64,000 bases of DNA from Candidatus Saccharimonadales bacterium (GTDB taxonomy: Bacteria > Patescibacteriota > Saccharimonadia > Saccharimonadales > DATKHC01), in contig JBBQBA010000002.1 in NCBI GenBank assembly GCA_038317055.1, positions 70,106 through 134,105 of the forward strand, read 5' to 3'. Below are positions 4,237 through 26,500 of the stretch, piece after piece (positions within the stretch are counted from its first letter, which is position 1; the number at the start of each line of letters is the position of its first letter). The notes beneath the pieces were generated by a model. That model saw only the letters and a program-made list of their open reading frames with translations, ran no database searches and was not told the DNA's origin. The position numbers were made by a program, and so were the translations under genes.

Positions 4237-4261
4237 TAGTTAAGTAATTTAATTAAGTTAC
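4237..4261. promoter_or_regulatory. second copy of the TAGTTAAGT...TTAATTAAGT motif (candidate MarR operator for the cupredoxin operon)
   Basis: Two TTAAGT hexamers, at 4240-4245 and 4254-4259. Shares TAGTTAAGT and TTAATTAA with the 3752-3772 site. Confidence 0.25.
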
Positions 4262-4301
4262 ATAACTAAATTAATGCCTAATCGGCAATAGGAGTAATCA
4301 A

Positions 4302-5003: not shown

Positions 5004-5005
5004 CA

Positions 5006-5401: not shown

Positions 5402-5412
5402 GGATAATATAT

Positions 5413-5817: not shown

Positions 5818-5873
5818 TCTAAAATTAAGTTAATTTTAGCGGATCGAATCAATTAAAGTATATAATATACTTC

Positions 5874-6854
5874 ATGTCTAGACTCAACATTGTTCGCAGT
5901 CGAAAGGGTCGCTATTTTGCCTATTATGATGGCGACAAACAAATAACAAAAAAAGCAGATCTAGAACGTATTAGAGCATTACGTATACCACCAGCTTGGA
6001 CTAGCGTAGCTATAGCTGGCAGTGAAAATGCCAAGGTACTCGCAAAAGGAGTAGATAAAGCAGGAAGATCTCAAGCAATCTATAATCCCAAGTTTCGAGC
6101 TAAACAAGAATCTTTAAAATATAAAAGAATCCTACTATTTGCATCTCACTTACCGCATCTTCGTCAACAAGTAGAAGAAGATCTTTTAAAACGTGGTCTA
6201 CCTAAAGAAAAAGTACTAGCGTGTATTGTTAAACTTATTGATATCGCTTATTTCAGAATAGGTAATGAAGAATACGCTAAAGAAAATGATAGCTATGGAA
6301 TTACTACTATGAGAAGTAAGCACATAGACGTTACAAATTACAGCGTAACTTTTGATTTCATGGGTAAAAGCGGTAAACGTCACGTCAAGAAAATAAATGA
6401 TCGAACTATTTCTCGAATTATAAAACAATTGGATGAAATGCCTGGCTATGAGATTTTTAAATACAAAGACGAAGAAGGCAAGATGCACGACATATCATCT
6501 CTAGATGTAAACGAATATATAAAGACATACATGGGTGAGGATTTTACAGCTAAAGATTTCAGGACGTGGGGTGGAACCCTACTCGCAGTAGATCTCCTTG
6601 CAACTGAGGACATAAAAGACTCTGAAACAGAACGTAAGCAAGCTGTCACGGCTTGTGTTAGGCGAGTAGCTCAGCGACTTGGTAATACACCAGCCATTGC
6701 ACGTGCTAGTTATATTAATCCACAAGTATTCAAACGATACATGGGTGGGGAAGATTTTGCTAAAGTTAAACAGACTATTTCCCGTATGAAACCGAAAAAA
6801 TATATTTCCGAAACTGAATGGTGTGCACTAAAAATATTAGAAATGAATACTTAG
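5874..6854 (+). CDS. DNA topoisomerase IB (poxvirus-like bacterial type)
   Basis: 326 aa with RIPPAWTSV, AKGVDKAGRSQAIYNP, TAKDFRTWGGT and LGNTPAIARASYINP (catalytic Tyr context). Confidence 0.88.
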   Translation: MSRLNIVRSRKGRYFAYYDGDKQITKKADLERIRALRIPPAWTSVAIAGSENAKVLAKGVDKAGRSQAIYNPKFRAKQESLKYKRILLFASHLPHLRQQVEEDLLKRGLPKEKVLACIVKLIDIAYFRIGNEEYAKENDSYGITTMRSKHIDVTNYSVTFDFMGKSGKRHVKKINDRTISRIIKQLDEMPGYEIFKYKDEEGKMHDISSLDVNEYIKTYMGEDFTAKDFRTWGGTLLAVDLLATEDIKDSETERKQAVTACVRRVAQRLGNTPAIARASYINPQVFKRYMGGEDFAKVKQTISRMKPKKYISETEWCALKILEMNT

Positions 6855-10334: not shown

Positions 10335-10359
10335 GGGTTACTACAGTATAATTATAACT

Positions 10360-11493
10360 ATGTCTGACCGCTTAACGGTAGCTATAATTAATCTTGTTAA
10401 TTACCGCCACAATATTAGGACTATTTTAAAACAACTTGATAAAGGTGTTAAATTAATGGCTATTGTTAAGGCTAATGCATATGGCCATGGACTTGAGGAA
10501 ATCGCCAAAGCATCTATTGAAGCTGGGGCAACTTATATAGGAGTGGTTAGTTTAGGAGAGCTTAAACGAGTAAGAGGAGCCGGTATAACAACCCCGACCC
10601 TAATACTTAATTATATTGATCCAATATCAATAAGTGAGGCAGTAAAACTCGATGCCAGTCTTACGCTAATGAGCCTTAACACAATAGTAGCAGCTCAAAA
10701 AGTAGCTAAAGATCAGTCCAAAATAATAAACGTACATATCAAAATAGATACAGGGATGCACCGCGCAGGTAGTACACCTGAAGAAATATTAGAACTTTCT
10801 CAAAAGGTTGTCAGTTCTCCAAATCTAAATTTAGAAGGAGTATTCACACATTTTGCAGAATCGGAAGCAATTGATGGCTTATTCACAAAAAAGCAGTTAC
10901 ATATATTTAATAACTGTCTTGAAATTCTTAAAAATCATCAAATTAATCCACCATTAATCCATTGTGCCAATAGCGCTGCAACTTTAACTTTTCCTGAGTC
11001 ACATTTTAATATGGTAAGGCCAGGAATAATTAGTTTTGGATTAACTCCTTTTGATCTTACTCACCATAAATACAATTTTGTTAAAAAACAGCTTAAACCA
11101 GTACTTTCACTTAAATGCCAAATAGCGATGTTAAAAATAATTAAATCTGGTGAAACAGTTGGTTATAATCGTCGATGGAAAGCAAAACGAACAAGTAAAC
11201 TAGCACTTTTGCCAATAGGCTACGGTGATGGTTGGCGAAGATCGCCAAATAATGCTGGTCGGGTATTAATAGGTGGTGAATATGTACCTATAGTGGGAAG
11301 CGTTTCTATGGACCAAATAGTTGTTGATGTGACCGGTTTAGACGATATAAAAATTGGAGATGAAGCAGTTTTAATTGGGACTCAAGGCAAATATTCTATA
11401 ACTGCAGATGATGTTGCTGATGCATACGGGACTATTAATTATGAAGTCGTAACAATGTTATCAGAACGTATTGTAAGAAAATATATTACTTAG
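10360..11493 (+). CDS. alr: alanine racemase
   Basis: 377 aa with the PLP-lysine motif AIVKANAYGHG. The C-terminal pattern GYGDGWRR...VSMDQIVVDV is typical of Alr. Confidence 0.9.
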   Translation: MSDRLTVAIINLVNYRHNIRTILKQLDKGVKLMAIVKANAYGHGLEEIAKASIEAGATYIGVVSLGELKRVRGAGITTPTLILNYIDPISISEAVKLDASLTLMSLNTIVAAQKVAKDQSKIINVHIKIDTGMHRAGSTPEEILELSQKVVSSPNLNLEGVFTHFAESEAIDGLFTKKQLHIFNNCLEILKNHQINPPLIHCANSAATLTFPESHFNMVRPGIISFGLTPFDLTHHKYNFVKKQLKPVLSLKCQIAMLKIIKSGETVGYNRRWKAKRTSKLALLPIGYGDGWRRSPNNAGRVLIGGEYVPIVGSVSMDQIVVDVTGLDDIKIGDEAVLIGTQGKYSITADDVADAYGTINYEVVTMLSERIVRKYIT

Positions 11494-11729
11494 TTGAATA
11501 TTTTATCCTTTCTCTAATTACGGTCCATCGGTACAATTTATAATTTATCTATAGAGAGTCAGAAGGGGTTATATGTAGTTTTGTTGATCAAAAAAATATA
11601 TCTGTATTCTACCTATAAAAAAAGCGTTATATTAATTATTTAGAAAATTGTAAGAATAAATTATTGATGGTTAAATATGCTTGAAAATCTTTCTGGAAAG
11701 AGCATAATTGTCATATATAGGAGACGAAA

Positions 11730-12302
11730 ATGAAAAGAAAATTGGTAAAAGAATTTAGACTTTCTATTGGCTCAGTTTTGGCAGATCAAGCTGAACAAAC
11801 AACTCGCATCGAACCAAAACAACGGATAGTTTTATCTGGAAATACTGAGGGTCGGAAAATTGATAATCGTACATATATTTATGTTGGAGAAACCGGTCTA
11901 AGGCCAGCCGTATTTTCCTTTGATCAATTATGGGGAATAACTGAACGAGCTAGACTACCTCAAAAAATTGAGAGGACAGGATATTTAGCCTTACAATCTA
12001 CATATGGTCAAAATAAGAGTTTAACAAGAAGATGGTTATTTGATAGCCCAATGGGGCCATCATATGGAATATCCACATCAAGAGAACTTAAATATGGTGA
12101 TGAAATTGACGACGCTATGACTTGGTTACAAAAACCTCATCTTGCAACTAAAGAAATCGGTAGAATCGCTACACTATTACCTGAAGAAGAAGCTATATTA
12201 CTAGAGCTAGATGAACATTATATTATGGCTAATGAACAGATAATTGCCCAACAAGAACTTGAAGGTAGAGCAAATAATATAATCCACAAAATTTTAATTT
12301 AA
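11730..12302 (+). CDS. hypothetical protein
   Basis: 190-aa ORF with an AGGAG SD 7 nt upstream. No recognised motif. Confidence 0.5.
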   Translation: MKRKLVKEFRLSIGSVLADQAEQTTRIEPKQRIVLSGNTEGRKIDNRTYIYVGETGLRPAVFSFDQLWGITERARLPQKIERTGYLALQSTYGQNKSLTRRWLFDSPMGPSYGISTSRELKYGDEIDDAMTWLQKPHLATKEIGRIATLLPEEEAILLELDEHYIMANEQIIAQQELEGRANNIIHKILI

Positions 12303-12350
12303 TCATATAGAACTAGCAATAATCATTTGATTTTGTTAAAGTTGACACCT

Positions 12351-13649
12351 ATGCAGGTAAAAAGAACTGATAAATCCGAAAACGAAGTTGTACTACTTAT
12401 TAGTGGTGACTTAGTCGAATTAGAACCCCTTAAAGAACATATCCTTAAAGATCATTTTGCAAAAGATATTAAAATTCAGGGCTTCCGACAAGGAAAGGCT
12501 CCACTTAATTTGGTTGAGAAAAATGTAAACCAACAAGAATTTCAAACTAAATTTTTAGATGAAGCTCTAAATAATCTTTATTCAACAGCAATTCAGCAAG
12601 AAAAATTAAGGGCCGTAGACCAGCCTAAGGTAGAAGTTAAAAAATTTGTACCATATACATTGGTTGAGTTTGAAGCAGTAGTACCCGTACTTGGAAAAAT
12701 AACTCTACCTGATTACAAAAGTATTAAATTACCTAAAGAACTAATAAAACCAGTTGGCGCAAAAGAAGTTGAAGAAGTAATAAAAAGGCTTCAAACTCAA
12801 GTAGCTGACAAAAATGATGTAGATAGAGCTATTAAGTCAGGCGACCAGACTTTTATCGACTTTATTGGTAAAAATTCTGATGGCAAACCAGTTAGCGGTG
12901 CAGAGGGTAAGGACTATCCACTAGTAATAGGTAGTGATAATTTTATCCCCGGTTTTGAAAAGAATCTTATTGGAATGAAAGCTGGAGACGAGAAATCTTT
13001 TACTCTTAAATTTCCTAAAGACTACACAATAAAAGCGCTTGCAAGCCGTGATATAACTTTTACTGTAAGTATTATAAAAGTTCAAGAAGTCGTAGAAGCT
13101 AAAGTAGACGACGAATTTGCTAAGAAAGTTGGAAAGTTTGAAAATGTAGCTGAACTTAAAAAAGATATAAAGAACCAGCTTACTCAAGAAAAAGAAAACA
13201 CCGAAGATAGAGATTACGAATCTAAGCTACTGGAACAAATCAGTTCTAAGAGTAAGGTGAAAATTCCCGAAGTATTAATTGAAAAAGAACTCGAAAACAG
13301 ATTAAAAGATTTTAAATTAAATCTTAGTTACCGCGGTCAGACAATGAAAGAATTTTTGGAAGACGAAGGTCAAACAGAGGCAGAATATATAGAAAAAGTA
13401 CTAAAACCAGAAGCAAGTAAACGACTTAAAGCTTCTATTATACTTTCAGAAATATCTGAACTTGAGGACATACCACTTACTAATGAAGAAGTTGATGCAC
13501 GATTACAATTAATGCGGGCCCAATATCAGGATCCTCAATCTAAAGCAGATTTAGATAATCCAGATACAAAACGGGATATAGCAAGTCGTATGCTCGCAGA
13601 AAAGACTATATCGAAACTCACAGATTATGCTAGTCGCTCGGCTAAATAA
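12351..13649 (+). CDS. tig: trigger factor
   Basis: FKBP-type PPIase core PGFEKNLIGMKAGDEKSF. The N-terminus MQVKRTDKSENEVVLLI is typical. The track start TTG 12327 is possible, but ATG 12351 is preferred. Confidence 0.9.
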   Translation: MQVKRTDKSENEVVLLISGDLVELEPLKEHILKDHFAKDIKIQGFRQGKAPLNLVEKNVNQQEFQTKFLDEALNNLYSTAIQQEKLRAVDQPKVEVKKFVPYTLVEFEAVVPVLGKITLPDYKSIKLPKELIKPVGAKEVEEVIKRLQTQVADKNDVDRAIKSGDQTFIDFIGKNSDGKPVSGAEGKDYPLVIGSDNFIPGFEKNLIGMKAGDEKSFTLKFPKDYTIKALASRDITFTVSIIKVQEVVEAKVDDEFAKKVGKFENVAELKKDIKNQLTQEKENTEDRDYESKLLEQISSKSKVKIPEVLIEKELENRLKDFKLNLSYRGQTMKEFLEDEGQTEAEYIEKVLKPEASKRLKASIILSEISELEDIPLTNEEVDARLQLMRAQYQDPQSKADLDNPDTKRDIASRMLAEKTISKLTDYASRSAK

Positions 13650-13664
13650 AAAAGCTTAAGATAT

Positions 13665-14108
13665 ATGAATAAATTTAGATCAAAAAAAGAAAAAATAGTC
13701 TATATTCCTATGGCTGCCGATATATTACATCGTGGACATATTAATATTATAAAAGAGGGGAACAAGCTTGGTTTAGTCATAGTAGGACTATTAACTGACG
13801 AAGCAATCACGGCCTATAAAAGAGTACCAGTGATGGAATACAAAGAAAGATTGGCGGTTGTTGAGAATATTAAAGGTGTATATAAAGTCATTCCTCAATC
13901 CGAATTGGACTACAGGGTCAATTTAATCAAATTAAAACCAGAATATTTTATGCATGGTGATGATTGGAAAACTGGCGTAATGAGCAAGCCACGAGAACTA
14001 GCTATAAAAACAATTTCGAAATGGGACGGAAAATTAGTTGAACCTGAATATACAAAAGGTATTTCAAGTTCAGATATAATTAAGAAAATAAAAGATAGTA
14101 AATATTAA
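13665..14108 (+). CDS. cytidylyltransferase-family enzyme (TagD/ECT-like, HxGH)
   Basis: 147 aa with PMAADILHRGHINII (HxGH) and a C-terminal GISSSDIIKKI, as in glycerol-3-P/phospho-alcohol cytidylyltransferases. Confidence 0.8.
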   Translation: MNKFRSKKEKIVYIPMAADILHRGHINIIKEGNKLGLVIVGLLTDEAITAYKRVPVMEYKERLAVVENIKGVYKVIPQSELDYRVNLIKLKPEYFMHGDDWKTGVMSKPRELAIKTISKWDGKLVEPEYTKGISSSDIIKKIKDSKY

Positions 14109-14109
14109 G

Positions 14110-15096
14110 TTAACTCATTTTTTTCATAGTAATGTAATTTCTATAGATTTTAACTCCAGGTCTTTTCATTTTATAAATTAAGTTACCAACCCTAATAGTA
14201 GAATATATTGCGCCACCTAAACCATCTAATTCGGCCTGTTCATGAACTTTTTTAATTAAAAGACTTGACAGTTTTTTACCTCTAAATTCTGGTAATACAG
14301 CTATTGTTTTAACTATTAATTGATTCTTATATGGATAAGAAATAATAAATCCAATCGGTTTATTGTTATCTTCTAAAAAAAAGCAGTAATTATTATTAAA
14401 AATATTATCTTTACCTTTTAAATTATATGATCTTTCTTTAAAAGATATTTTGGGACAATATATACTGTTTACTGGAAAAATCTCGTTCATAATTTCGTGA
14501 TATATTTTTAGGTTTTCTAACGGTCTCCTTTTACTAAAAGATTGCACCTTATAATTCATATTATTCTTTGAAGGATTTTTAATAAATAATCTAATATATC
14601 GTTGATAATTATTTAATTTACCCGAAACATATCGGTTATAAACTTTGAAGCCAGCTTCTTTAAATACATTTATATACCAGGTCGGATTTATGGGTTCTCC
14701 GGGTATAAGGAAGTCTTCTTGTAAATTAAAGCGGTAGTCATTGGTAATTGTTCCATTTATAGGCCCATAAATTACTTTTAAATTGCGTTCATTTTTTAAC
14801 CATTCAGTTGCTTGATTTAATACTTTTACTCCAGACTCATAGTTCGTACAGCCAAAATATCCAACAATGCCTATTTTTGGTAAGCGACTGTCTATCATGG
14901 CAATTACGTGAGCAGACTGCCCACCTTCACTTAAACTAAATACTTTAGCATCTAAAATATTCCATATAGGATTCTTCGACTGTAAATCTTTATTCCATCT
15001 ATATAATGCTGGCTCCCTAATGTTCTTGTTGTAAGTAATTCTAGAAATATTAGATAATTGAATACGACTGGAACTGAGGAAGCTTAAATCACGCAT
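14110..15096 (-). CDS. GNAT-family acyl/acetyltransferase with N-terminal extension
   Basis: 328 aa. C-terminal GNAT motif A is IAVLPEFRGKKLSSLLIKKV. Overlaps the upstream gene by 8 nt. Confidence 0.6.
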   Translation of the reverse strand: MRDLSFLSSSRIQLSNISRITYNKNIREPALYRWNKDLQSKNPIWNILDAKVFSLSEGGQSAHVIAMIDSRLPKIGIVGYFGCTNYESGVKVLNQATEWLKNERNLKVIYGPINGTITNDYRFNLQEDFLIPGEPINPTWYINVFKEAGFKVYNRYVSGKLNNYQRYIRLFIKNPSKNNMNYKVQSFSKRRPLENLKIYHEIMNEIFPVNSIYCPKISFKERSYNLKGKDNIFNNNYCFFLEDNNKPIGFIISYPYKNQLIVKTIAVLPEFRGKKLSSLLIKKVHEQAELDGLGGAIYSTIRVGNLIYKMKRPGVKIYRNYITMKKMS

Positions 15097-15685
15097 GTTT
15101 TGTATTTATAACTAAAAAGATTATCGCATATACAATCTCAAGTTGAGCAAATAAAGGATGAGGTTTTTTAATAAGTTTTGATGAAACCATCAAGGGAATC
15201 ATGATAACTAATATAAGTAGTGAAATTTTAGATTCAAATAATAGGCAAAGTAGTAAAGCATATTTACTAAACAGCACAGGCAAGCCGGTATAGTATTTTG
15301 ACTTTTTTTCAACATAGCCAACTACAGTAAAACGACTCAATCTAAGAATAGAAGCTAAACAAAAAGTAGTAGTAATTAAAAGACTATACCATTGCCAATT
15401 TGCTTGAATGTTGATAACTAGGGCAGGAAATAATACCCAGCCTAGTACATCATATAAAGTATCAAGTACCTTTCCATATATAGAAGCACCAAATCTTCTC
15501 GCTATGTAACCATCCAAAAAGTCCAAATACATTGAAATAAAAGTTAGTGCTATAGCTAGATATAGTTGTCCTTGCCATAACAACCAGAAAGAATTAATTA
15601 TTAAAAAGACAGCAAGCATGGTTATATAATCAGCCTTCGATAACTCAGTAATAATGTGTTTTTTAGTCATTAGCCAACAACTCAA
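15089..15685 (-). CDS. CDP-alcohol phosphatidyltransferase family protein
   Basis: 198 aa, polytopic. Signature D-x2-DG-x2-AR-x8-G-x3-D-x3-D is present as DFLDGYIARRFGASIYGKVLDTLYD. Confidence 0.85.
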   Translation of the reverse strand: MSCWLMTKKHIITELSKADYITMLAVFLIINSFWLLWQGQLYLAIALTFISMYLDFLDGYIARRFGASIYGKVLDTLYDVLGWVLFPALVINIQANWQWYSLLITTTFCLASILRLSRFTVVGYVEKKSKYYTGLPVLFSKYALLLCLLFESKISLLILVIMIPLMVSSKLIKKPHPLFAQLEIVYAIIFLVINTKHA

Positions 15686-18029
15686 CAGATTGACTTGATG
15701 TATTGATTCTTACATTCATGCCGTTCTTTAAATGTTGAGTAATGTCCTCAACTCCGATTATGCTTGGGATACCAAGTTCTCTAGTTACGATTGAAGCGTG
15801 AGATAGTATTCCGCCGTGTTCGACAATTAAACCTTTGGCTAATGCAATTAAAGGTGTCCAGCCCGGATCCGTATGAGAGACTACTAATATATCGAACGGT
15901 ACTTTTGGAATAATTGGATGTTCTAGTACGATTACCTTACCTTCTATTGTGCCGGGAGACGAAATTGTACCTTTAAAAGTATGTTTATTCGTAGTGTTTA
16001 TAGATTTATGCGTTAGAAAATCAGCTGGAACTGTATTGGTTAAACCTGTTGTTATAAATCTTGCGGGTGGTGATAGCTTTCGGTAACCGCTATATTTTTG
16101 CTTTCTAAAACTTATAATTTGCTTAAGATTATTCTCAAAACCTGTACCATCAATTTGTTTAAATAATTCTTCAATCTCTAAATAATAAATGTCTTTTGCA
16201 CTCTCGATTAAACCCAACTTAGTAAGATTTTCTGATACTTCGATAAATAGTTCACGTAAATATGCGTAGGCTTTACCCCTTAATAACCTGTTTTGTTCCC
16301 TAATTCTGAGGTGCTTCTTTAGGCGACTAATTAACAGCTTATATAAGATTCTTTGTGATAGTTTTAGGCTACTTTGTAATTTAATACTCCTTTCGCTTTC
16401 AGCATTCATTGCTATATTACGTCTATCAGAAATAGTTTTATTGTTGAGTTTAGTATAGCTTTGAATTAACTCATAAAAACCAGATAATTTTAAAAGTGGG
16501 TTAGCTACTTCTAACTTTTGATCTTCTGCGAAACGATGCAAAAAAGTATCACGATACTCTATCAATAAGTCTTTTGCATTGCTATTTAATATATAGTTGT
16601 CTAATTTTATATAATTTGTATTTTTAAGTAAATTTGAAGCCGTTTCATCATTTTTAATATATTCCGCTATTTCACTCAACACTACTGCTTGACGTGCACT
16701 AATTACGTTATGAAGTGAACCAAGAAAGTTCGAAGCTTCATCTTTAGAATTGTTTAACCAAACACTTAACTTCTTTTTCAATATTCCATGATAAATCATT
16801 ACGAAGAAATCATTATCTGCACTACGTCCCATAATTGGAATCACTTTTTGCTCAATGAATGCATAACGGTCCATTTGACTAAATAGATCATTTCCGTGAG
16901 GCATATTCTCAAAATCCTCGTATTTCGATTTAAGTTGACGCCAATATTTTCTTTTCTCAAAATTAAATAATATGGTTCTTCTCATTATTCTAAAATAAAA
17001 ATTTATCCTATAACTTATTGGATAGTTACTAGGAGGTAGATATACTGCATTACCAATAGTTTGTAATTGATCATCTAAATATTTTTGGTTTTGATTGTTG
17101 TTAGGAAAAAAACCTATAAATTTGTACCAACTACTTAAGTTGTAATACATTCTGCCTGCGAATATTCCAACCATTGCATTAAAAGTACGTTGGTTTTCTT
17201 CTAACTGATACCAATTTAATCCTGCAGCATAACCTTGAGATTTATATACAAGTTCATAGCCCCGCCTAGAGATTGAAAATGTAAGAGGTAGTACGATTCC
17301 AGGAAAGCTCTCACCAAGGTTAGCGTTGTCCCATAAACGCAAATGATTAATTACGGTTATTGGTCTTGTTTGTAAATAATAAAATTTGTCACCAACTAAA
17401 GCCCATTCGATATCCTGAGGAGTTGTAAGTTCTTTTTCAATCAACAATACTGCATTAGTTAATTCCTTGATCTTTTTTGGAGAAATCAGATTTTTGGATA
17501 TATTATTTGCATATCTTATATCCCCACCTGGTCTATTGACATGAATTGAATTTGAATCTTTACCATCTACCACCTTACTTCCATGACCTTTAACGGCATT
17601 AATTAACATTTCAGACTGTCCGCTAGCTGGGTTTACACTAAAAATCACACCCGCTATGTCAGGCTCTATATATAATTGAACTATTGCATTTACAGAATAT
17701 TGCTTGGCCAATTTATAGCCTTTAAAGGGTTTACTCGAGGCAACTTTACGTAGTGCTTTTATAAAATCTGTACTATTGGTTACAGGCATAACACTAATAA
17801 ATTGACCGGCATAGGATTTATTGTCAGAATCTTCTTCTTCAGCAGAAGATCTAACTGCTACACTCATGCAATTGTATTCTTTAGACCATGACTCAAAATC
17901 ACGAATTAATGACTCAATTATATTTTCATTTAGGTTTTGTATTGTTGTTGACGGAATAACATAAAAATCAGGAACGTTTAACCCAATATTTTTTAATTTC
18001 TGTAAGTTTTTAGCTTTATTACCATACAT
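15663..18029 (-). CDS. PEP-utilising-family dikinase-like phosphotransferase (ATP-grasp PPDK_N + central domain + swivel-His domain; rifampin-phosphotransferase-like architecture)
   Basis: 788 aa. N-terminus has GNKAKNLQKLKNIGLNVPDFYVIP and VAVRSSAEEEDSDNKSYAGQF. C-terminus has DILVVSHTDPGWTPLIALAKGLIVEHGGILSHASIVTRELGIPSIIGV. No PEP/pyruvate TIM-barrel segment was recognised. Confidence 0.82.
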   Translation of the reverse strand: MYGNKAKNLQKLKNIGLNVPDFYVIPSTTIQNLNENIIESLIRDFESWSKEYNCMSVAVRSSAEEEDSDNKSYAGQFISVMPVTNSTDFIKALRKVASSKPFKGYKLAKQYSVNAIVQLYIEPDIAGVIFSVNPASGQSEMLINAVKGHGSKVVDGKDSNSIHVNRPGGDIRYANNISKNLISPKKIKELTNAVLLIEKELTTPQDIEWALVGDKFYYLQTRPITVINHLRLWDNANLGESFPGIVLPLTFSISRRGYELVYKSQGYAAGLNWYQLEENQRTFNAMVGIFAGRMYYNLSSWYKFIGFFPNNNQNQKYLDDQLQTIGNAVYLPPSNYPISYRINFYFRIMRRTILFNFEKRKYWRQLKSKYEDFENMPHGNDLFSQMDRYAFIEQKVIPIMGRSADNDFFVMIYHGILKKKLSVWLNNSKDEASNFLGSLHNVISARQAVVLSEIAEYIKNDETASNLLKNTNYIKLDNYILNSNAKDLLIEYRDTFLHRFAEDQKLEVANPLLKLSGFYELIQSYTKLNNKTISDRRNIAMNAESERSIKLQSSLKLSQRILYKLLISRLKKHLRIREQNRLLRGKAYAYLRELFIEVSENLTKLGLIESAKDIYYLEIEELFKQIDGTGFENNLKQIISFRKQKYSGYRKLSPPARFITTGLTNTVPADFLTHKSINTTNKHTFKGTISSPGTIEGKVIVLEHPIIPKVPFDILVVSHTDPGWTPLIALAKGLIVEHGGILSHASIVTRELGIPSIIGVEDITQHLKNGMNVRINTSSQSVELLAND

Positions 18030-18031
18030 AA

Positions 18032-18961
18032 CTATTGAAAATACAATGTAGCCGCCGCAGCAAGATACATTACAAGGGAAGTACCATTTAGAAGTTCGGC
18101 ATTTTTCATTATTGGCTTTCTCTTATATTTATATATAGACCAACCAACTGTTAAAAGGCCTATAATTAATATGTACCATTTTGTATTACCTCCTAAATAT
18201 TTAATAAGGAAAGCTGTGTATATAGCAGATCCTAACGTAAAAAATACAAATGATGTTAAGGCTACATTTACTCCTAAAAAATATGAATATCTATCTTTGG
18301 CTGCCTTGCCATCAATTCCGCCAATTGTTCTTGATGCTTCTACCATACCAATCATAATGATCACAAAAACGAAAAATAATAGTTTCTGTCTAATGGGCTG
18401 AATACCTAGTACAGTTAAAATAAGCCAATCAAGAATTAGCAATTGAACATAATGAGAAAATTGATAAGTTAGAAAATGTTGTCTAAGCCAATCTCTCATA
18501 AAAAACTCGTGTCTTGTCAGATACGAGTAAAATTGTTGAAGACAGGCAAGCATGAAGACTTCTAGTGAACCGGTTAGTGCAGATAATATAAAGAATAAAC
18601 ATATAGTAATAGTTTTTAATTTCGATAATTCTTTAAGTGTTATTACGCCTCTTTGAACTGGTCTATCAGGATAAAATTCATTATCATGTTCAAAATCTTT
18701 AGGTTCGTCAGCTAGCCGTATCTGAAGAAAATATAGCACAATCATAAAAGTGGCGATCAATACTTCATTCCATTTATAAGACCCACCTGACTTTGCTAAA
18801 GTTGCTGATAGAGTAAAACCTATGACAGTCATTATTATTATTGGTATGCGCTCAGTCTGAAATATCCAAAATCTATGAGAAAAAGACCATTTATTATACG
18901 GTGGTTTTAATTTACTAGATTTATAAATTCTATCGAGACGTTTTTTTTCGTTTTTTCCCAT
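18032..18961 (-). CDS. UbiA-superfamily-like polytopic membrane protein (divergent prenyltransferase)
   Basis: 309 aa with about 8 TM. RLADEPKDFEHDNEFYPDRPVQRG resembles the first Asp-rich UbiA motif. Lies 2 nt upstream of the dikinase gene. Confidence 0.5.
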   Translation of the reverse strand: MGKNEKKRLDRIYKSSKLKPPYNKWSFSHRFWIFQTERIPIIIMTVIGFTLSATLAKSGGSYKWNEVLIATFMIVLYFLQIRLADEPKDFEHDNEFYPDRPVQRGVITLKELSKLKTITICLFFILSALTGSLEVFMLACLQQFYSYLTRHEFFMRDWLRQHFLTYQFSHYVQLLILDWLILTVLGIQPIRQKLLFFVFVIIMIGMVEASRTIGGIDGKAAKDRYSYFLGVNVALTSFVFFTLGSAIYTAFLIKYLGGNTKWYILIIGLLTVGWSIYKYKRKPIMKNAELLNGTSLVMYLAAAATLYFQ

Positions 18962-18991
18962 GTTGACTAAAGTATACTAATTTATGTACGG

Positions 18992-19135
18992 ATGTTAAAA
19001 GAAAATATACATAGAATACTTGCTCTCCTAGTTTTAGTTTTATTTAGCCTTATAACCGTTAAATATCACTTTCTCTGGCCTGTTTTGATTTTTATTGGCA
19101 TTAGCTTAATCCCAGCACAACGGACAAAGAAGTAG
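18992..19135 (+). CDS. possible 47-aa hydrophobic micro-protein upstream of the UbiA gene
   Basis: Own translation: MLKENIHRILALLVLVLFSLITVKYHFLWPVLIFIGISLIPAQRTKK. Its TAG lies 1 nt before the ATG at 19137. No clear SD, and it is below the track size cutoff. Confidence 0.3.
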   Translation: MLKENIHRILALLVLVLFSLITVKYHFLWPVLIFIGISLIPAQRTKK

Positions 19136-19136
19136 C

Positions 19137-20075
19137 ATGATTAGACAGTCACTCAAATTTGCCAGAATTAGAATTATCGCAACATGTGCTTCGATATTGT
19201 TTTTAGGTAGCGCTTACTCAGGCAGTATCACAATAAAAACTTTACTTGGACTTGTATTAATTGTTGGATTCACGATACATGCTAATTCGATTAACGATTA
19301 TAGCGATAAAGAGATCGACAAAATAAATTTAAAAAATGCACACGATAGACCTTTAGCAACGAATCATATTAACTCAAAGCAATTATGGATAATCAACGCT
19401 GTAAGTGGCTTATTAATTCTATTGGTGTCTCTTATTTATGGATTGGATGTATTTATACTTAGTATTTTTATATTACTTATAGACTACGCTTATTCACTTA
19501 AACCTTTTAGAATTACAAATAGAACAATCTTAAGTCCTGTTCTACTATCGGTATCATATGTATATTATTCCTTCTCAATTGGTTTTTTGTCCACACCAAC
19601 CACCAGTAAATATCCCTGGTTGTTGACTATAGGCTTAAGTTTTGGATTTTTTGCAAGATTGTTGTTAAAGGATTTCCGTGATGTGGTTGGTGATAAAAAA
19701 TTTGGAAAAATAACTTTTCTAATTCGTTATGGACAATCACTAACCTGTCTTACAAGCGGCATATTTTGGGCGTTTGCTTTATTTTTAATTATTAAAGCTA
19801 GCTCATTCAATCTTGCATTAGGATTGGTACTTCTGGTTGCATTTATAGAATCGACAATTTTATTAAATATACTAGCAAAGGAAATTAAGTATAAGAATCA
19901 GGAAAAGTTAATTAGTTATATAGCTAAAGCTGCTAATTACACAATAATAACAATACTTGCATATCTACTATGCGTCGCTGAAAATGGTATTACGAATAGA
20001 CAGACACAAGTCATAACTGTTCTCGTTGGTATGATATTACTTACTTATAACTGGTTAGAATATAGGATGAATTGA
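19137..20075 (+). CDS. UbiA-family prenyltransferase
   Basis: 312 aa, polytopic. Motif 1 is NSINDYSDKEIDKIN...DRPL and motif 2 is KDFRDVVGDKKFGKIT. Confidence 0.8.
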   Translation: MIRQSLKFARIRIIATCASILFLGSAYSGSITIKTLLGLVLIVGFTIHANSINDYSDKEIDKINLKNAHDRPLATNHINSKQLWIINAVSGLLILLVSLIYGLDVFILSIFILLIDYAYSLKPFRITNRTILSPVLLSVSYVYYSFSIGFLSTPTTSKYPWLLTIGLSFGFFARLLLKDFRDVVGDKKFGKITFLIRYGQSLTCLTSGIFWAFALFLIIKASSFNLALGLVLLVAFIESTILLNILAKEIKYKNQEKLISYIAKAANYTIITILAYLLCVAENGITNRQTQVITVLVGMILLTYNWLEYRMN

Positions 20076-20076
20076 A

Positions 20077-20928
20077 ATGACTAAACAGCACGATAATGTT
20101 CTTGCGTATTACAAATCAACAAACTTCGATTATGAACATTTTTGGTCTGGTAAAAATGCTTTAGCACTTCATTTTGGATATTATGATAATTCAGTTAAAT
20201 CACATCAACAATCATTAATGAAAATGAATGATGTCTTAGCAAGATATGGAGATATAAAAGATACTGAATCAGTGCTTGATGCTGGCTGTGGTTATGGTGG
20301 AAGTTCATTATGGTTAGCAGAAAACATAGGATGCGATGTTACCGGAATATCAATTGTCCCCTATCAAATAAAAAAAGCCCGAATCGAAGCTAATAAATCC
20401 GGGCTAAATAAGCGATTGAAGTTTATAAGGGGGGATTATGCGAATACTGATCTTCCATCAAAATCTTTTGATGTTATTTGGGGCCTCGAGAGTATTGTCC
20501 ATTGTGAAGATAAGTTAGCATTTACGAAAGAAGCCTTCCGTTTATTAAAACCAAATGGTCGATTAATAATATCTGAATATATGTTGAGGCAAAAACCGTT
20601 ACTTTCTAAAAAAGAACATTCAAAAATGGAGCCATTTTTGAAAGGTTGGATGATGCCGGATCTGTTAACCTTAGATCAATATAAGAAGTATTCAAAATCT
20701 GCTGGATTTAATACTTTTAAGGATTTTGATCTTTCGAAAAATGTAGATAAATCATTGCGTGAATGTCGTAGAAATGCTGCGATGGCAAAGCCATTTGTGG
20801 GAATATTAAAACAACTTGGTTTAATTAATCCGATTCGTCACGACTACACCATGGCGAACTATCTACTATACGACTTATTTAAGGAAGGACTTTGGAGCTA
20901 CAGAGTGTTAATTGCAGTTAAGTCTTAA
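20077..20928 (+). CDS. class I SAM-dependent methyltransferase (gamma-tocopherol/phosphoethanolamine MT-like)
   Basis: 283 aa with HFGYYD followed by VLDAGCGYGGSSLWLA (motif I). Lies 1 nt after the UbiA stop. Confidence 0.85.
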   Translation: MTKQHDNVLAYYKSTNFDYEHFWSGKNALALHFGYYDNSVKSHQQSLMKMNDVLARYGDIKDTESVLDAGCGYGGSSLWLAENIGCDVTGISIVPYQIKKARIEANKSGLNKRLKFIRGDYANTDLPSKSFDVIWGLESIVHCEDKLAFTKEAFRLLKPNGRLIISEYMLRQKPLLSKKEHSKMEPFLKGWMMPDLLTLDQYKKYSKSAGFNTFKDFDLSKNVDKSLRECRRNAAMAKPFVGILKQLGLINPIRHDYTMANYLLYDLFKEGLWSYRVLIAVKS

Positions 20929-20938
20929 TAATTCGGTT

Positions 20939-21544
20939 TTATAAATTATATATGTATTTCATAAGGTTTTCAGGAGATCTATTTATTCCACCTGAAATCG
21001 GTTTGCCTATGTAGACATGGCAAGTCCATCTGTTAACCCAGTCTATTTTTACCGGTATTAAGAAAGTGCTATTTTCTTTAGCAAGTACTGAAATACCTGA
21101 TTTTACTATTTTCTCACGAGTTCTAGAACCAGAAGGAAACATAAGAATTGTTTGACCTGTTTTTAGTAAGGTTTTGGCTTTGTCTATGCCATATCGTTTA
21201 TTTTCTATAAAATGCGCAGGGAAGCCACCCAGTGAAATTAATAAGAAACCAATAAATCCATTCAGTTAAGTATTTTCAACAAAAAAACGAAACGGCAATA
21301 GTCGATATATTATATTAAAAGGCATTGATGCGGTAATTATAAAAGGATCAAAAATACTTTGGTGATTAGAATAGACAATCAATTTAGAATCTTTTGGAAG
21401 ATTGTTTAAGGATAGAATATTTTTATCAAAACGTAAATTACTCCTGACTATTAAAAATCTAAATATATAGAGAAACATTGCAATGATAATTTGAGCTAAA
21501 TAGACCAATAACTTCTCAGTGCGGTATATATTTTTAGTTTTCAT
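20939..21544 (-). pseudogene. 1-acyl-sn-glycerol-3-phosphate acyltransferase-like (PlsC family) interrupted by one in-frame TAA
   Basis: Track ORFs 21266..21544 and 20939..21142 are in the same frame. My translation reads ...SNHQSIFDPF (HX4D)...FRFFVENT*LNGFIGFLLISLGGFPAHFIENKRYGIDKAKTLLKTGQTILMFPSGSRT (FPEG-like)... The only stop is TAA at 21268-21266. Confidence 0.75.
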
Positions 21545-21639
21545 CTAAACTAGTATCCCATATTCATATTTTAGTATTAATTAATTGTAACTGCTTGTGT
21601 TAATATTTTCTTAAAGCACATTAATTAAGGGGACGTAAA

Positions 21640-22290
21640 ATGAGTGTTTCATTATCAAATTTAATAGTAGATTTATTCTTTATACACGCTACTTTAGCAA
21701 CGGGCATTATTGCGTGGTATTTTTTAACAAAAAAGAAAAAAGTATTTAAGGATTTTGGTTGGGGTATGCTTGGTTATAGTTTAGGATTAGCATCTTGGAC
21801 CGTTTTAGTTATAACAAGACCGAATGATCTTAAACCTCTTATTATTATTGGTGTAATCCCGTTTTTATTAGGTGCATTAGCTTACGCTCGCGCCGCTTCA
21901 GATAAGTTTCCGATTAATGGTAATACTTTATTAACATTGGTTCTACTGCTTATTGTGGCGACGTTTGTTACTCGCACCTACTTCTATCCATCAGATCCAT
22001 ATTTTTCAAGTAAAGGGCTACTATTCTTCGGCTTAGCACCAGTTCCTATAGCTCTTTATATAGCGACAATATCAGTAACATTTCTTCCAGCTATACGCGC
22101 AGTGATTGCTAGCATGAAAGATAAAGTTATGAAGTCAGTGTTGGGCGTAGGTTTAACGGTACTCTATGTGTGTTCTATCATTTTAATAAGCTCAAATGAT
22201 AATACATTATTGTTAATTAACGGTGTAGTAATCACGGTATCTTTGTTAGTTATTTGGGTAAAGATTTTAGGTTCACCAAACAAAATATAA
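21640..22290 (+). CDS. polytopic membrane protein, unknown function
   Basis: 216 aa with about 6-7 hydrophobic helices. AAGGGGA SD upstream. Confidence 0.55.
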   Translation: MSVSLSNLIVDLFFIHATLATGIIAWYFLTKKKKVFKDFGWGMLGYSLGLASWTVLVITRPNDLKPLIIIGVIPFLLGALAYARAASDKFPINGNTLLTLVLLLIVATFVTRTYFYPSDPYFSSKGLLFFGLAPVPIALYIATISVTFLPAIRAVIASMKDKVMKSVLGVGLTVLYVCSIILISSNDNTLLLINGVVITVSLLVIWVKILGSPNKI

Positions 22291-22310
22291 CAGAGTGTAA
22301 GCATAATAAA

Positions 22311-22337
22311 TTAGCACTCTTGACTCACGAGTGCTAA
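22311..22337. promoter_or_regulatory. CIRCE element (HrcA operator), perfect consensus
   Basis: TTAGCACTC (22311-22319), N9 ttgactcac, then GAGTGCTAA (22329-22337). Identical to the published CIRCE consensus TTAGCACTC-N9-GAGTGCTAA. Confidence 0.85.
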
Positions 22338-22348
22338 TTAGCTATTAT
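22320..22348 (+). promoter_or_regulatory. putative sigma-70-type clpP promoter overlapping CIRCE
   Basis: TTGACT (22320-22325), 17 nt spacer, TATTAT (22343-22348). The clpP ATG lies only 6 nt after the -10 box. Confidence 0.4.
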
Positions 22349-22354
22349 GTATGT

Positions 22355-22960
22355 ATGACACAACGAACTAATTCGATCCTTATTCCTACAGTTATTGAAC
22401 AAGAAGGCCAGATGGAGCGAGCCTACGATATATACTCTCGTCTGTTAAAAGACCGCATTATATTTTTAGGTACAGCTATTGATGAACACACAGCTAATTT
22501 AATCGTTGCTCAGCTTCTATTTTTAGATAGTCAGGATACAAAGAAAGACATTTCTATATATATAAATAGTCCCGGTGGAAGTGTTTATGATGCTTTTGCG
22601 ATATACGATACGATAAACTTTATTAAATCAGATGTTTCAACAATTGCCGTTGGAATGGCAGCAAGCGCCGCAGCATTTTTACTAAGTAGTGGAACTAAGG
22701 GTAAAAGATTTGCACTACCTCATTCAAAAATTATGATACACCAACCTTCAAGCGGCACTCGTGGAAAAGTAACTGATATGGAAATAGATCTTGAAGAATC
22801 AATCAAACTTAAGAAACAACTCGAAGAAATATTAGCAAAGAACTCAGGTCAAAAAGTTAGCAGAATACATACAGATATGGAGAGAGACTACTATATGAGT
22901 GCTGATGAAGCTCATAAATATGGTTTAGTCGATAGCATTATCCGTACTATCAAGAAATAA
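22355..22960 (+). CDS. clpP: ATP-dependent Clp protease proteolytic subunit
   Basis: [36 protein letters not shown] (Ser) and IMIHQP (His). The track GTG start at 22331 lies inside CIRCE, so ATG 22355 is preferred. Confidence 0.93.
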
Positions 22961-22970
22961 AATTACTTTA

Positions 22971-23261
22971 ATGGACAAAGAAGCGTTAGCTAATTCAATT
23001 GATGATCTAAAGATTCACAGAAAGAAGAATTTAAGAGATGGGTGGTTACTAGCTTCTTTATCAGTTTTTAATATTTTAGGTACTGACACAAGCAATAATA
23101 CATTCTATAAATTTTTTGCAGGAAGTATGGCGGTAGCTGCATCCTTATATGCAACGCATGATTTTCTAGAAGCTAGAGAAGATAGACAATTTATAGATGG
23201 TCTTGAAATGGTACTAGAAGAACAAGATCATATCATAGAAAAAGACGATAATATCGAATAA
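22971..23261 (+). CDS. hypothetical small protein with hydrophobic core segment
   Basis: 96-aa ORF with no recognised motif. Confidence 0.45.
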   Translation: MDKEALANSIDDLKIHRKKNLRDGWLLASLSVFNILGTDTSNNTFYKFFAGSMAVAASLYATHDFLEAREDRQFIDGLEMVLEEQDHIIEKDDNIE

Positions 23262-23520
23262 ATAGATTAATTGTGGGTTTTATGAAATTTATTTAGTACA
23301 CACGTAATACATATATTGAACTTAACTAAAAAAGTCTTGACATTAGCGAAACTATTCCTCACACTATGATCTAAAGAAGTAGTATACGTCGGCGTGGTTT
23401 TAATTTATTTAAAATCCACCAAAAAATACCAATCGTAGTGATCTTCGTGCACGAAATTCAAATAAATCAAATTTATAAATCTAACTAATTAATTAAATAT
23501 TGTTGGGAGTTAATTAGAGT

Positions 23521-26500
23521 ATGGTAAAAAACGTTGCTACTAAAAGTGACCTTGTAAAGCGAACTTATTTTTCAAAAACAGACAATTTATTAGATGTACC
23601 AAACTTAGTTGATCACCAAAATCGTTCATTCCAGTGGTTTGTGGAAGAAGGTTTAGGTGAGATTTTTGCTGAAATAAGTCCAATCGATGACTACACTGGC
23701 ACTAAACTATCATTAAGTTTTAAAGACTATCATTTTGAAGAACCAAAATTAACCGAAATTGAAGCAAGATCTAATAATGTATCTTATGACGCTCCACTTA
23801 AGGCTACTGTAGAATTAACTAATAAAGTTACTGGTGAAATTAAAGAGCAAGAAATATATCTCGGTGACTACCCATGGATGACTTCTCGAGGAACTTTTGT
23901 TATAAACGGCGCTGAGCGAGTGGTTGTAAGTCAACTTATTCGAAGTTCTGGAGTATTCTTCACATCTGAAGTTTCAGGTTCAGCTAATGTATATGGTGCT
24001 AAAGTTATTCCGAACCGTGGTGCATGGCTTGAATTCGAAACCGCAAATAGTGGTGTTATATATGTAAAGATTGACCGAAAACGTAAAATACCTGTTACTA
24101 CACTACTTAAGGCCCTCGGAATGACTGAAGCTCAAATGCGAGAAGCCTTTGGTCATGTTGATCAAGGTGAACTAAGTTACCTAGATACTACCCTAAAGAA
24201 AGATCCATCACGTGGCACTAATGATGCATTAATTGAGATTTATCGAAGACTACGACCAGGTGATCTAGCTACTGTAGAAAACGCTCGTTCATTAATCGAG
24301 AACATGTTCTATAACTTCAAACGATTCGATTTTAGTCGAGTTGGTCGTTATAAGCTCAATAAGCGATTAAACCTTGATTTGCCCAACACAATCGAGAACC
24401 GAATAATGCGACTGGAAGATCTAACAGCTATTGTGGCTGAGATAATTCGTCTAAATAATACTCAAGATCCAGCAGATGACATTGATTCACTAGCAAATCG
24501 AAGAGTAAAACTCGTTGGTGAACTCGTTCAAAGACAATTCCGAATCGGACTTCTGCGAATGGAGCGAAACACTAAAGATCGAATGAGTATGAACGAAATT
24601 GAGACTGTAACTGCCGCTCAACTTATAAATGCTCGTCCTATTGTTGCTGCTGTTCGCGAATTTTTCGCAATTTCACAGTTATCACAATTCATGGATCAGA
24701 TTAATCCATTATCAGAACTTGCCCACAAACGTCGATTAAGTTCAATGGGACCTGGTGGACTATCACGAGAACGAGCTGGTTTCGAAGTTAGGGATGCACA
24801 TGCAACCCATTACGGTCGAATCTGTACCGTAGAAACCCCAGAAGGATCAAACATCGGACTAGTCCTAAACCTTGCTAGTTATGCAAGAATTAACGACTAC
24901 GGTTTTGTAGAAACTCCTTATAAGAAAGTTGTAAACTCAACCACTGCTAAAGATGCTATTGGTCGCATCGCACGACACGACCTTGAAGATTCTAAGGGTA
25001 AAACTATTGTAAAATCTGGATCAAAAATTACAGCCACTCAAGCTGCTGCCCTAGGTAAGATTAAGGAACAAGTTACTTGGCCAATAAAACCTTTCGTTAC
25101 TGATGAAATAGTGTATCTTGATGCTGCTGAAGAAGAAGTCGCAGTTATAGCCTCAGCTGACGCAAAGTTTGATGATGATGGATTCTTTATTAGTGATCGT
25201 GTTGGTGCTCGAAACCGATTAGTTACTGGAGAAGTTGATTCAAGTATTGTTACTCATGTTGATGCTGCCACTAATCAGACAATTGGTGCAAATGCCACAT
25301 TAATTCCTTTTATCGAAAAAGACCGAGTTGACCGTGCACTTGTTGGCGCTAACCAGCAAAAACAAGCTGTGCCACTAGTTCGTCCTATGTCTCCAACAGT
25401 AGGAACTGGCTATGAGCGAACTCTTGCTCTAAATACCTCTCAGCTAATTGTTGCTGAAGATAATGGTGAAGTACTTAAAGCTACAGCAGATGAAGTAGTT
25501 ATTAAGTATCCAAAATTGACTAAAACCTATACTCCGCTACATTTCCAGCGAAGTAATGAAGGTACCTCAATGAATCAAAAAGTTGTAATTAGCTCTGGCG
25601 ACAAAGTTAAAAAAGGCCAACCGCTAATTGAGGGAATGAGTGTTCAGGATGGCGAAATCGCTTTAGGCCGTGACGTTAAAGTCGCATTTATGCCTTGGCA
25701 TGGTTACAACTTCGAAGATGCAATCGTTATTTCTCAAAGACTTGTTCAAGAAGATGTCTTTACGTCTATTAATATTATGGACTTCATGGTTGAAGTTCGT
25801 GAGACAAAATTAGGTCCAGAAGTTTTAACTCGAGATATTCCAAATGTATCAGAGGAAGTTCTGCGACATTTAGATGATGATGGAATTGTACGAATCGGTG
25901 CAGAAGTTCATCCAGGTGATATTCTTGTTGGAAAAATTACCCCTAAGGGTGAGCAAGAACTAAGTTCTGAAGAACGATTACTCCGAGCTATCTTTGGTGA
26001 AAAAGCAAAAGAAGTTCGTGATACTTCAGAGCGAATGAGCAATGGTAAACACGGTAAAGTTGTCGGTGTTAAGGTATTCTCAAGAGATAATGGCCATGAA
26101 CTAAAATCTGGTGTTATTAAGCAGGTACAAGTATTCGTAGCTCAAATGCGAAAAATACAAGTTGGAGATAAGTTAGCTGGAAGACACGGTAACAAGGGCG
26201 TTATTGCTCGAGTTTTACCAGTTTCTGATATGCCTTTCTTAGAAGACGGATCACCAGTTGATGTTGTACTAAATCCAATGGGTGTACCATCAAGAATGAA
26301 CATTGGACAGTTATTTGAAACGCACCTTGGAATGGCAGCAAGTGCGCTTGGTATTAAAGTTGCTACTCCTCCATTTAATGGAGTAACAGTCGAAAAGATA
26401 CAAGAACTACTTAAAGAAGCAGGATTACCTGAAGATGGTAAACAGCAACTATATGATGGTCAAACCGGTGAAGCTTTTAAAGAACGAACAGTTGTTGGTG

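Follow-up and report, generated by a model that had tools for sequence, protein, structure and literature searches.

The operator CIRCE and its repressor HrcA are known from Bacillus subtilis, in which they exert class I heat-shock control over dnaK and groESL (Zuber & Schumann 1994, cited in PMC3192767 and PMC7737663). The accompanying GroE titration model was put forward by Mogk et al. (1997, cited in the same two articles), and our use of it draws on the B. subtilis and Mycoplasma work covered by PMC7737663. A case in which clpP itself is a target comes from Streptococcus salivarius, whose clpP gene is under dual regulation by CtsR and HrcA (Chastanet & Msadek 2003, J Bacteriol 185:683, as cited in PMC3842655). 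In the Mollicutes, the HrcA regulon is recognized by CIRCE elements upstream of lon, clpB, dnaK and dnaJ. These four are the CIRCE genes of M. gallisepticum; in M. pneumoniae, the tig promoter drives lon, and a CIRCE lies immediately in front of it, while Spiroplasma carries a double CIRCE at dnaK and at clpB (PMC7737663, PMC4245973, PMC5138195). Leaderless mRNAs, the second subject of this work, have been described in Actinobacteria such as Mycobacterium tuberculosis (Cortes et al. 2013, cited in PMC12641261).

Our literature search found no paper linking HrcA, CIRCE or leaderless mRNAs to Saccharibacteria, Patescibacteria or CPR bacteria. To our knowledge, gene regulation in CPR bacteria (Patescibacteria) is almost unstudied. 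Here we analyze the clpP promoter on a 64-kb stretch of Saccharibacteria DNA (hereafter the window) together with its counterparts across the lineage.

Compared with B. subtilis, the operator consensus TTAGCACTC-N9-GAGTGCTAA is identical, the repressors carry the same Pfam HrcA domains with a near-identical winged helix-turn-helix (wHTH) in the segment SSATIR...QPHTSAGRIPTDKGYRFY, and Saccharibacteria keep an hrcA-grpE-dnaK-dnaJ operon under CIRCE. CIRCE elements in B. subtilis are transcribed, being placed at the transcription start or downstream of it. In contrast, here the gene behind the operator is clpP, the −35 box is enclosed by the operator spacer, the mRNA is probably leaderless with CIRCE outside the RNA, and the HrcA proteins of Saccharibacteria measure about 235 aa rather than the about 340 aa of those studied. 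The S. salivarius system, as far as the citing article describes it, shares with this locus a clpP gene under HrcA and so provides a precedent for this control, but CtsR co-regulates the gene there, whereas in the present case clpP has no CtsR box nearby, clpC too is preceded by CIRCE, and the phylum is a different one. With the Mollicutes, the Saccharibacteria share a reduced genome, very few transcription factors and an HrcA that controls, here by prediction, an ATP-dependent protease as well as chaperones. The tig-CIRCE-lon arrangement of M. pneumoniae resembles the tig-CIRCE-clpP arrangement of Saccharibacteria, and the double CIRCE of Spiroplasma resembles the tandem operators at CPR dnaK. 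The HrcA-controlled protease of the Mollicutes is Lon, however, not ClpP, and the cited articles describe none of those genes as leaderless. Since the two lineages are unrelated, the resemblance is probably convergent.

A CIRCE operator within the clpP promoter

The inverted repeat TTAGCACTCTTGACTCACGAGTGCTAA, at positions 22311–22337 of the window, matches the CIRCE consensus at 18/18 positions, as established by reading the sequence and by pattern search (Table 1). The CIRCE pattern has this single match in the whole window even when up to three mismatches are allowed, against 0.02 expected from shuffled sequences. The element is located 18 nt 5′ of clpP, a protease gene, and overlaps TTGACT-N17-TATTAT, the top-scoring σ70-like site within 21500–23600 (10/12 consensus positions). 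Sites of this type are otherwise depleted in the region, with 4 found against 10.9 in shuffles. The original prediction, made from the letters alone, had claimed both an exact match to the CIRCE consensus and an overlap with this promoter. The search returns 0 mismatches and places the −35 box inside the operator spacer, and the observation on the clpP promoter is thereby confirmed in every detail.

Table 1. Features of the clpP locus in window coordinates; negative positions are relative to the predicted transcription start at 22355
Feature	Position	Strand	Remarks
CIRCE left arm TTAGCACTC	22311..22319	+	−44 to −36; exact consensus; conserved in orthologous clpP promoters
−35 hexamer TTGACT	22320..22325	+	−35 to −30; first six bases of the 9-nt CIRCE spacer (22320–22328)
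CIRCE right arm GAGTGCTAA	22329..22337	+	−26 to −18; exact consensus; hardly varies among aligned relatives
−10 hexamer TATTAT	22343..22348	+	−12 to −7; 17 nt past the −35 box; same TATTAT in L001, L212, L215 and L217
clpP start codon ATG	22355..22357	+	6 nt (22349–22354) past the −10 box; transcription predicted to start on its A
clpP coding sequence, 201 aa + stop	22355..22960	+	Pfam PF00574 CLP_protease, 1.4e-78; 93% identical to L001 ClpP
96-aa ORF	22971..23261	+	10 nt past clpP; possibly co-transcribed (uncertain)

We also considered CtsR as the regulator. The CtsR box RGTCAAA-NAN-RGTCAAA has no match at ≤3 mismatches within 1 kb of clpP; window-wide, 18 matches at this threshold compare with 11.5 expected from shuffles. 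A tblastn search with the CtsR of B. subtilis as probe gave no match to ctsR, either in the window or among 24 loci of Saccharibacteria.

Reading of the stretch from the operator to the clpP ATG reveals no Shine–Dalgarno (SD) motif of the form GGAG, GAGG or AGGA. Neither of two nearby ATGs (22347 and 22351) is in frame with clpP, and a GTG that does share its frame, at 22331, falls within the right operator arm, 5′ of the −10 box. Some gene callers extend the start to a GTG within the operator, giving a 209-aa form of ClpP (P0128). With the alternatives out of frame or in an operator arm, the proposal that the ATG at 22355, 6 nt past the −10 box and without an SD, is the only plausible one for clpP holds. 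The N-terminus MTQRTN that follows is common to the ClpP proteins of the window, L001 and L217, and the protein database contains a 201-aa entry (P0121) that is 100% identical to the window ClpP. The geometry had been called near-leaderless. The short spacing stands, but this wording proves too weak: because the gap between the −10 box and the ATG is 6 nt, a canonical start would fall on the A of the ATG, which fits a fully leaderless geometry and not merely a near-leaderless one.

The operator is conserved at most Saccharibacteria clpP loci

We assembled 27 clpP loci, comprising the window, L001–L024, L212, L215 and L217, with the identical L022 and L023 counted once. Since these loci were fetched by ClpP protein similarity and not by a DNA motif, the set is not biased towards CIRCE. 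The element was counted as present when found with 0–3 mismatches within 120 nt upstream of clpP. By this definition, CIRCE precedes clpP at 22/27 loci, against a chance that we estimate at about 3e-5 per locus. The five loci without it (L013, L014 and L017–L019) have a more divergent ClpP, and the link between CIRCE and clpP is therefore not universal in Saccharibacteria.

The promoter is conserved along with the operator. All 22 CIRCE-bearing loci contain a TTGNNN hexamer in the spacer, at offset 0 in 16 of them, at +2 in one and at +4 in five. Scripted scoring finds a TAnnnT −10 box 17–18 nt downstream of the −35 box at 21 of these 22 loci. At L002, the automated scan returned no promoter pair, and a TATAAT read by eye overlaps the end of the right arm. 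At the 21 scored loci, the −10 box keeps pace with the offset of the −35 box, a co-shift that shows these promoter elements to be real.

A scan of species genomes identified the complete chromosome OY969420.1 (779,761 bp; locus L001) as the nearest genome, with a ClpP 93% identical to that of the window. Its CIRCE is identical to the window’s, while the flanking bases differ. The gene order of the relatives is hisS-tig-clpP-rpoB; in the window, tig lies at 12327–13649 and an 8.6-kb inserted block separates it from clpP. The operator has been retained with clpP despite a differing upstream gene, which is tig in the relatives and part of the inserted block in the window.

Leader classes and leaderless geometry

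By the stretch between the −10 box and the ATG, the 22 clpP promoters with a CIRCE can be sorted into two classes; a few starts were corrected by eye. In 13 of them, the −10 box lies 6–9 nt before the ATG and no SD is present (one locus, L022, is ambiguous at 9–12 nt). The other nine have a leader of 25–56 nt, and every one of these leaders (9/9) contains an SD of the GGAG/GAGG/AGGA type. The orthologs with short spacing all start with ATG, and the five loci without CIRCE have a TATAAT- or TACAAT-type box 6–8 nt before the ATG.

Close relatives of the window differ in this respect. L212, L215 and L217, whose ClpP proteins are 88–90% identical to the window’s, have the same operator, −35 box and TATTAT box and a MTQRTN-type N-terminus, together with a leader of 25–29 nt that contains AGGAG, AAGGAG or TGGAGA. 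This leader is missing entirely in the window and in L001.

We then measured the distance from TATAAT-like hexamers to the ATG of long ORFs in the window and L001–L024 (417 kb), independently of gene calls. The distances peak at 6–9 nt with 13, 23, 11 and 13 cases, that is, 60 against about 12 expected, an approximately five-fold enrichment over a background of about 3 per position elsewhere. Composition-matched control hexamers, reversed or rotated, gave only 19–20 cases at 6–9 nt, and GTG or TTG starts in the same 417 kb gave no peak at this distance (3 cases). An enrichment restricted to AUG starts is what leaderless initiation predicts. Within the window, the arrangement of TATAAT, 7–8 nt and an ATG without SD is found at the genes for topoisomerase IB (5874), alanine racemase (10360) and a class I tRNA synthetase (51617), and also at two hypothetical genes (51004 and 55210).

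The same geometry is shared by many genes of M. tuberculosis: according to the article citing that work, transcription starts on the AUG itself, about 6–7 nt past a −10 box, and an SD is absent. For Saccharibacteria, the comparison draws on geometry and comparative data. The original prediction had suggested a leaderless or very-short-leader clpP mRNA, and the SD-less orthologs with short spacing, the relatives with SD-containing leaders and the lineage-wide enrichment at 6–9 nt all lend this support. The clpP mRNA of the window is probably leaderless, and the spacing data suggest that leaderless genes are widespread in Saccharibacteria.

As a separate observation, an obvious SD is missing at many genes of the window.

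HrcA and its regulon in Saccharibacteria

A metagenome scan for CIRCE elements with TTGAC in the spacer listed at least 120 loci. The TTGAC makes the otherwise symmetrical search directional, so that the downstream gene can be identified. Among the loci listed, this gene is hrcA-like in about 40, dnaK in 25, a clpC-type ATPase in 11, clpP in 8, groES/groEL in 6, hsp20 in 3 and dnaJ in 1; an FmdB-like gene follows in 4, on high-GC contigs, and a few genes occur as singletons. Loci retrieved by HrcA protein similarity have the order lepA...hrcA-grpE-dnaK-dnaJ, with a TTGAC-bearing CIRCE before hrcA. L203 and L204 have another CIRCE before grpE-dnaK, followed by a weaker tandem operator, and L206–L209 have a weaker second operator within the hrcA leader. 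At L002, a second CIRCE precedes clpC. The same operator-in-promoter design recurs in Saccharibacteria and elsewhere in the CPR: hrcA and grpE-dnaK carry it in Saccharibacteria, and dnaK, groES, hsp20 and clpC carry it in CPR metagenome loci.

The hrcA-like proteins are 225–245 aa long (about 235 aa) and contain Pfam PF01628 (HrcA C-terminal) and PF03444 (HrcA wHTH). Their wHTH aligns with that of Thermotoga maritima HrcA (PDB 1STZ; E 1e-23), a protein of 338 aa, compared with which they are about 100 aa shorter. In the profile search against the PDB, the wHTH alone aligned and did not delimit the missing segment, and an AlphaFold model of the short HrcA is unusable at a mean pLDDT of 42. Homologs are extremely numerous, with at least 8000 for each of two query clades. 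Among the matches listed, those named by NCBI belong to Candidatus Saccharibacteria or Saccharimonadales, and some lie on contigs of 777–810 kb, that is, in near-complete genomes.

HrcA probes from B. subtilis and E. coli and probes of the CPR type all failed to match in the window and the Saccharibacteria clpP loci, and hrcA is therefore not a neighbor of clpP. Probes for GroES, GroEL, DnaK and ClpX, likewise from B. subtilis and E. coli, gave no match in the same sequences. One HrcA protein (P0093) was examined as a link to the window’s genome and rejected, as the 283-aa methyltransferase adjoining it is only 31% identical to the window’s.

The idea that HrcA has taken over the control of proteolysis, advanced for this reduced genome, is supported at the level of the lineage: CIRCE stands at 22/27 clpP loci and also at clpC, HrcA is abundant, and no CtsR box lies near clpP. 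Judged by these comparisons, the clpP promoter is real and probably HrcA-controlled, and ClpP appears to be part of one HrcA-centered protein-quality-control regulon that includes hrcA, grpE-dnaK-dnaJ, groES, hsp20, clpC and clpP.

A model of clpP control and its alternatives

We propose that clpP of the window is transcribed from a σ70-type promoter with a built-in CIRCE, which would be repressed by HrcA, start on the ATG and produce a leaderless mRNA; we put the probability of this reading at about 0.72. In the proposed mechanism, an HrcA dimer would occupy both operator arms (−44 to −18), with the −35 hexamer between them. Because the arms flank this hexamer, RNA polymerase would be excluded from the −35 region and clpP would be repressed. 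By analogy with the GroE titration model, induction under stress would come about as unfolded proteins accumulate and occupy GroEL/ES, upon which HrcA would become inactive and the clpP promoter would fire. The first transcribed base would be the A of the ATG at 22355, 7 nt beyond the end of the −10 box, and ribosomes would translate the resulting mRNA without an SD. If the clpP mRNA is indeed leaderless, CIRCE would lie outside the transcript and could act at the DNA level only.

The most serious alternative accepts the operator as real but has clpP expressed mainly from a leadered transcript, by read-through from upstream or from another promoter, with an SD-less start at 22355 and with CIRCE serving as a roadblock, as a 5′ UTR hairpin, or as both. 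The layout upstream would allow this, given that a co-directional gene (21640–22290) stops 20 nt ahead of CIRCE and nothing resembling a terminator intervenes. The RNA of 22291–22375 folds at −22.8 kcal/mol (z = −3.35), and an SD-less start would be in keeping with the many window genes at which no obvious SD is seen. Yet the junction from promoter to ATG is identical in L001, although tig lies upstream there, and leader-bearing clpP orthologs always have an SD. For these two reasons we rate a leadered transcript lower and consider it unlikely. Furthermore, the −10 box stands at the exact canonical distance from the ATG, a spacing enriched lineage-wide at ATG starts only, and a functionless promoter matching 10/12 consensus positions would be odd in a region with fewer promoter-like sites than its shuffles.

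We regard it as very improbable that the inverted repeat is a relic, or the site of a regulator other than HrcA, in a genome that has lost hrcA. The gene is indeed not in the window, and it was not recovered for this genome among the best 120 of at least 8000 matches to two queries, a result that is uninformative on its absence; the five Saccharibacteria clpP loci without CIRCE also indicate that the link can be lost. A relic would decay, however, whereas this site keeps 18/18 consensus positions, and L001, with a ClpP 93% identical, has it unchanged between flanks that differ. HrcA is, moreover, extremely common in Saccharibacteria, near-complete genomes on 777–810 kb contigs included, and the wHTH of the short HrcA closely matches the CIRCE-binding HrcA family. 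That the palindrome, a perfect 9-bp stem 20 nt past the upstream stop codon, is instead a terminator or 3′ stability hairpin of the upstream gene and no regulatory site of clpP can practically be dismissed: the stem has no T-run after it, a scan for terminators was negative, the element travels with clpP whatever the upstream gene, the same sequence also stands before hrcA, dnaK, clpC and groES, and it matches the CIRCE consensus base for base.

Significance of the proposed HrcA regulon and of probable leaderless genes

The regulator and operator of the favored HrcA-repressed, leaderless clpP promoter are textbook elements, so the surprise to a specialist is moderate. Distinct here are the target pair of clpP and clpC, the −35 box within the operator spacer, the probable leaderless transcript and an HrcA shorter by about 100 aa. 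The interest is mainly lineage-wide and lies in one HrcA regulon that includes the Clp protease, in genes that appear widely leaderless, and in leaders that come and go. For episymbionts, this amounts to a concrete and testable circuit in which one repressor and one operator design would join chaperones and Clp protease in a single regulon, in parallel with the use of Lon by Mollicutes. Widespread leaderless genes would also affect the prediction of gene starts in thousands of metagenome-assembled genomes and would bear on translation initiation by the reduced ribosomes of CPR bacteria.

In its broadest form, which we offer tentatively and at slightly less than even odds, the proposal is that Saccharibacteria and much of the CPR place their whole protein-quality-control network under a single truncated HrcA of about 235 aa with its operator around the −35 box, and that a considerable fraction of its genes, as of the lineage’s genes overall, is expressed as leaderless mRNA, with leaders gained and lost between close relatives. 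If this were true, leaderless initiation would count as a major mode of translation, and one labile in evolution, in a phylum whose ribosomes are reduced, and a minimal HrcA lacking about 100 residues would still sense stress.

Sequences downstream of clpP

The 96-aa ORF that follows clpP has no Pfam match, and the terminator scan detected no terminator-like site separating the two. Small ORFs of variable size are found at the same position after clpP in L001 and L212, but not in L215. Elsewhere in the window, an Rfam scan identified three tRNAs only, and other proteins encoded in the window match short Logan contigs of run SRR19962015.

HrcA of Saccharibacteria

The HrcA proteins of Saccharibacteria are 232-257 aa long, versus 338 aa for T. 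maritima HrcA. Their HMMER alignment to 1STZ covers the wHTH only, and against the Pfam C-terminal model the match is confined to the model's last ~115-140 positions. In NCBI records they are annotated as "transcriptional regulator", "HTH domain-containing protein" or "hypothetical protein". The domain missing from the short HrcA could not be identified in the AlphaFold model, the quality of which was too poor.

Operator variants and possible regulon members

Analysis of the promoters reveals tandem operators at dnaK/grpE and also at some hrcA genes. In the tandem pair, the -35 box lies within a strong CIRCE; the leader, 3' of the -10 box, holds a second, weaker one, TTGGCA(C/A)TC-N9-GAGTGCTAA. 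The tandem arrangement resembles the double CIRCE described for Spiroplasma dnaK and clpB (PMC5138195).

CIRCE also precedes a gene for a ClpC-type AAA+ ATPase, both in a further clpP locus and in four metagenome loci. No clpX adjoining clpP was found in any Saccharibacteria locus examined; clpX matches were many (53 in all) in the non-Saccharibacteria loci of the same scan. In Saccharibacteria, ClpP may have ClpC as its partner. Four other metagenome loci, on contigs that appear high-GC, carry a CIRCE with TTGAC in its spacer upstream of a small FmdB-like zinc-ribbon protein (MPIYEYxCxxCG...); this protein may belong, so far unrecognised, to the HrcA regulon of another phylum.

Five Saccharibacteria clpP loci (L013, L014, L017, L018 and L019) lack CIRCE; the operator has therefore been acquired or lost by some members of the phylum. 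The ClpP proteins of these loci are 64-66% identical to that of the window, and all five genes show the leaderless-type geometry, in which the -10 box lies shortly before the ATG.

Leaderless candidates and start-codon calls

In five other genes of the window, the ATG follows 7-8 nt after a box of the TATAAT or TAAAAT type, with no SD; these genes are probably leaderless. The database entries for two close ClpP relatives, P0128 (209 aa) and P0129 (211 aa), extend 8-10 residues beyond the 201-aa form, with a start that is probably a GTG within the right arm of CIRCE, 5' of the -10 box. If so, this would constitute a systematic start-codon error, of a kind that leaderless genes can provoke.

Positions of features in the window and in the compared loci
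Feature	Sequence	Positions
hrcA genes for short HrcA (proteins P0001-P0120, P0241-P0360)	L116, L124, L154, L203, L206, L210
Tandem operators, dnaK	L083, L097, L100, L111, L117, L144, L151
Tandem operators, hrcA locus	L203	10707-10778
Tandem operators, hrcA locus	L206	9923-9999
ClpC-type ATPase after CIRCE, clpP locus	L002	3549-6113
ClpC-type ATPase after CIRCE, metagenome loci	L133, L156, L180, L202
FmdB-like protein after CIRCE	L086, L089, L115, L142
Box-to-ATG stretches (topoisomerase IB, alanine racemase, hypothetical protein, class I (Trp/Tyr-type) tRNA synthetase, hypothetical protein)	Window	5861-5876, 10347-10362, 50991-51006, 51603-51619, 55197-55212
Block between tig and clpP	Window	13665-22290
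Cytidylyltransferase	Window	within block
GNAT	Window	within block
CDP-alcohol phosphatidyltransferase	Window	within block
PPDK_N/PEP-utilizer protein, 788 aa	Window	within block
UbiA prenyltransferases (two)	Window	within block
SAM methyltransferase	Window	within block
Membrane protein	Window	within block
Split lepA	L210	5840-8494
Split lepA	L211	2060-4714
rpoB and rpoC in short ORFs	L001 (OY969420.1)	11686-17811
MarR-family regulator and following genes	Window	3794-5817
DNA topoisomerase IB	Window	5874-6854

Gene context

An 8.6-kb block separates tig and clpP in the window; in L001 and L212-L217, the close relatives inspected for the gene upstream of clpP, tig stands immediately before it. 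The GC content of the block is 0.315-0.33, below that of the rest of the window. The block appears to be a cluster of acquired genes for lipids or the cell envelope.

A methyltransferase only 31% identical to that of the window is found in two hrcA loci from independent assemblies, L210 and L211. There, lepA is apparently interrupted by a 283-aa SAM-methyltransferase ORF lying in line with it: 280 aa remain as an N-terminal ORF and 338 aa as a C-terminal one, and the methyltransferase ORF overlaps each of them at one end.

In the closest relative, OY969420.1, a complete chromosome, rpoB and rpoC are broken into many short ORFs, which points to frameshift errors in the assembly; protein-based searches of OY969420.1 may therefore miss genes.

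Elsewhere in the window, the annotated parts yielded a single recognisable transcription factor, a MarR-family regulator. After it come a 233-aa protein without a Pfam match and two cupredoxin-like proteins. The topoisomerase IB, encoded here in a small genome, is of the eukaryotic type (Pfam Topoisom_I and Top1B_N_bact).
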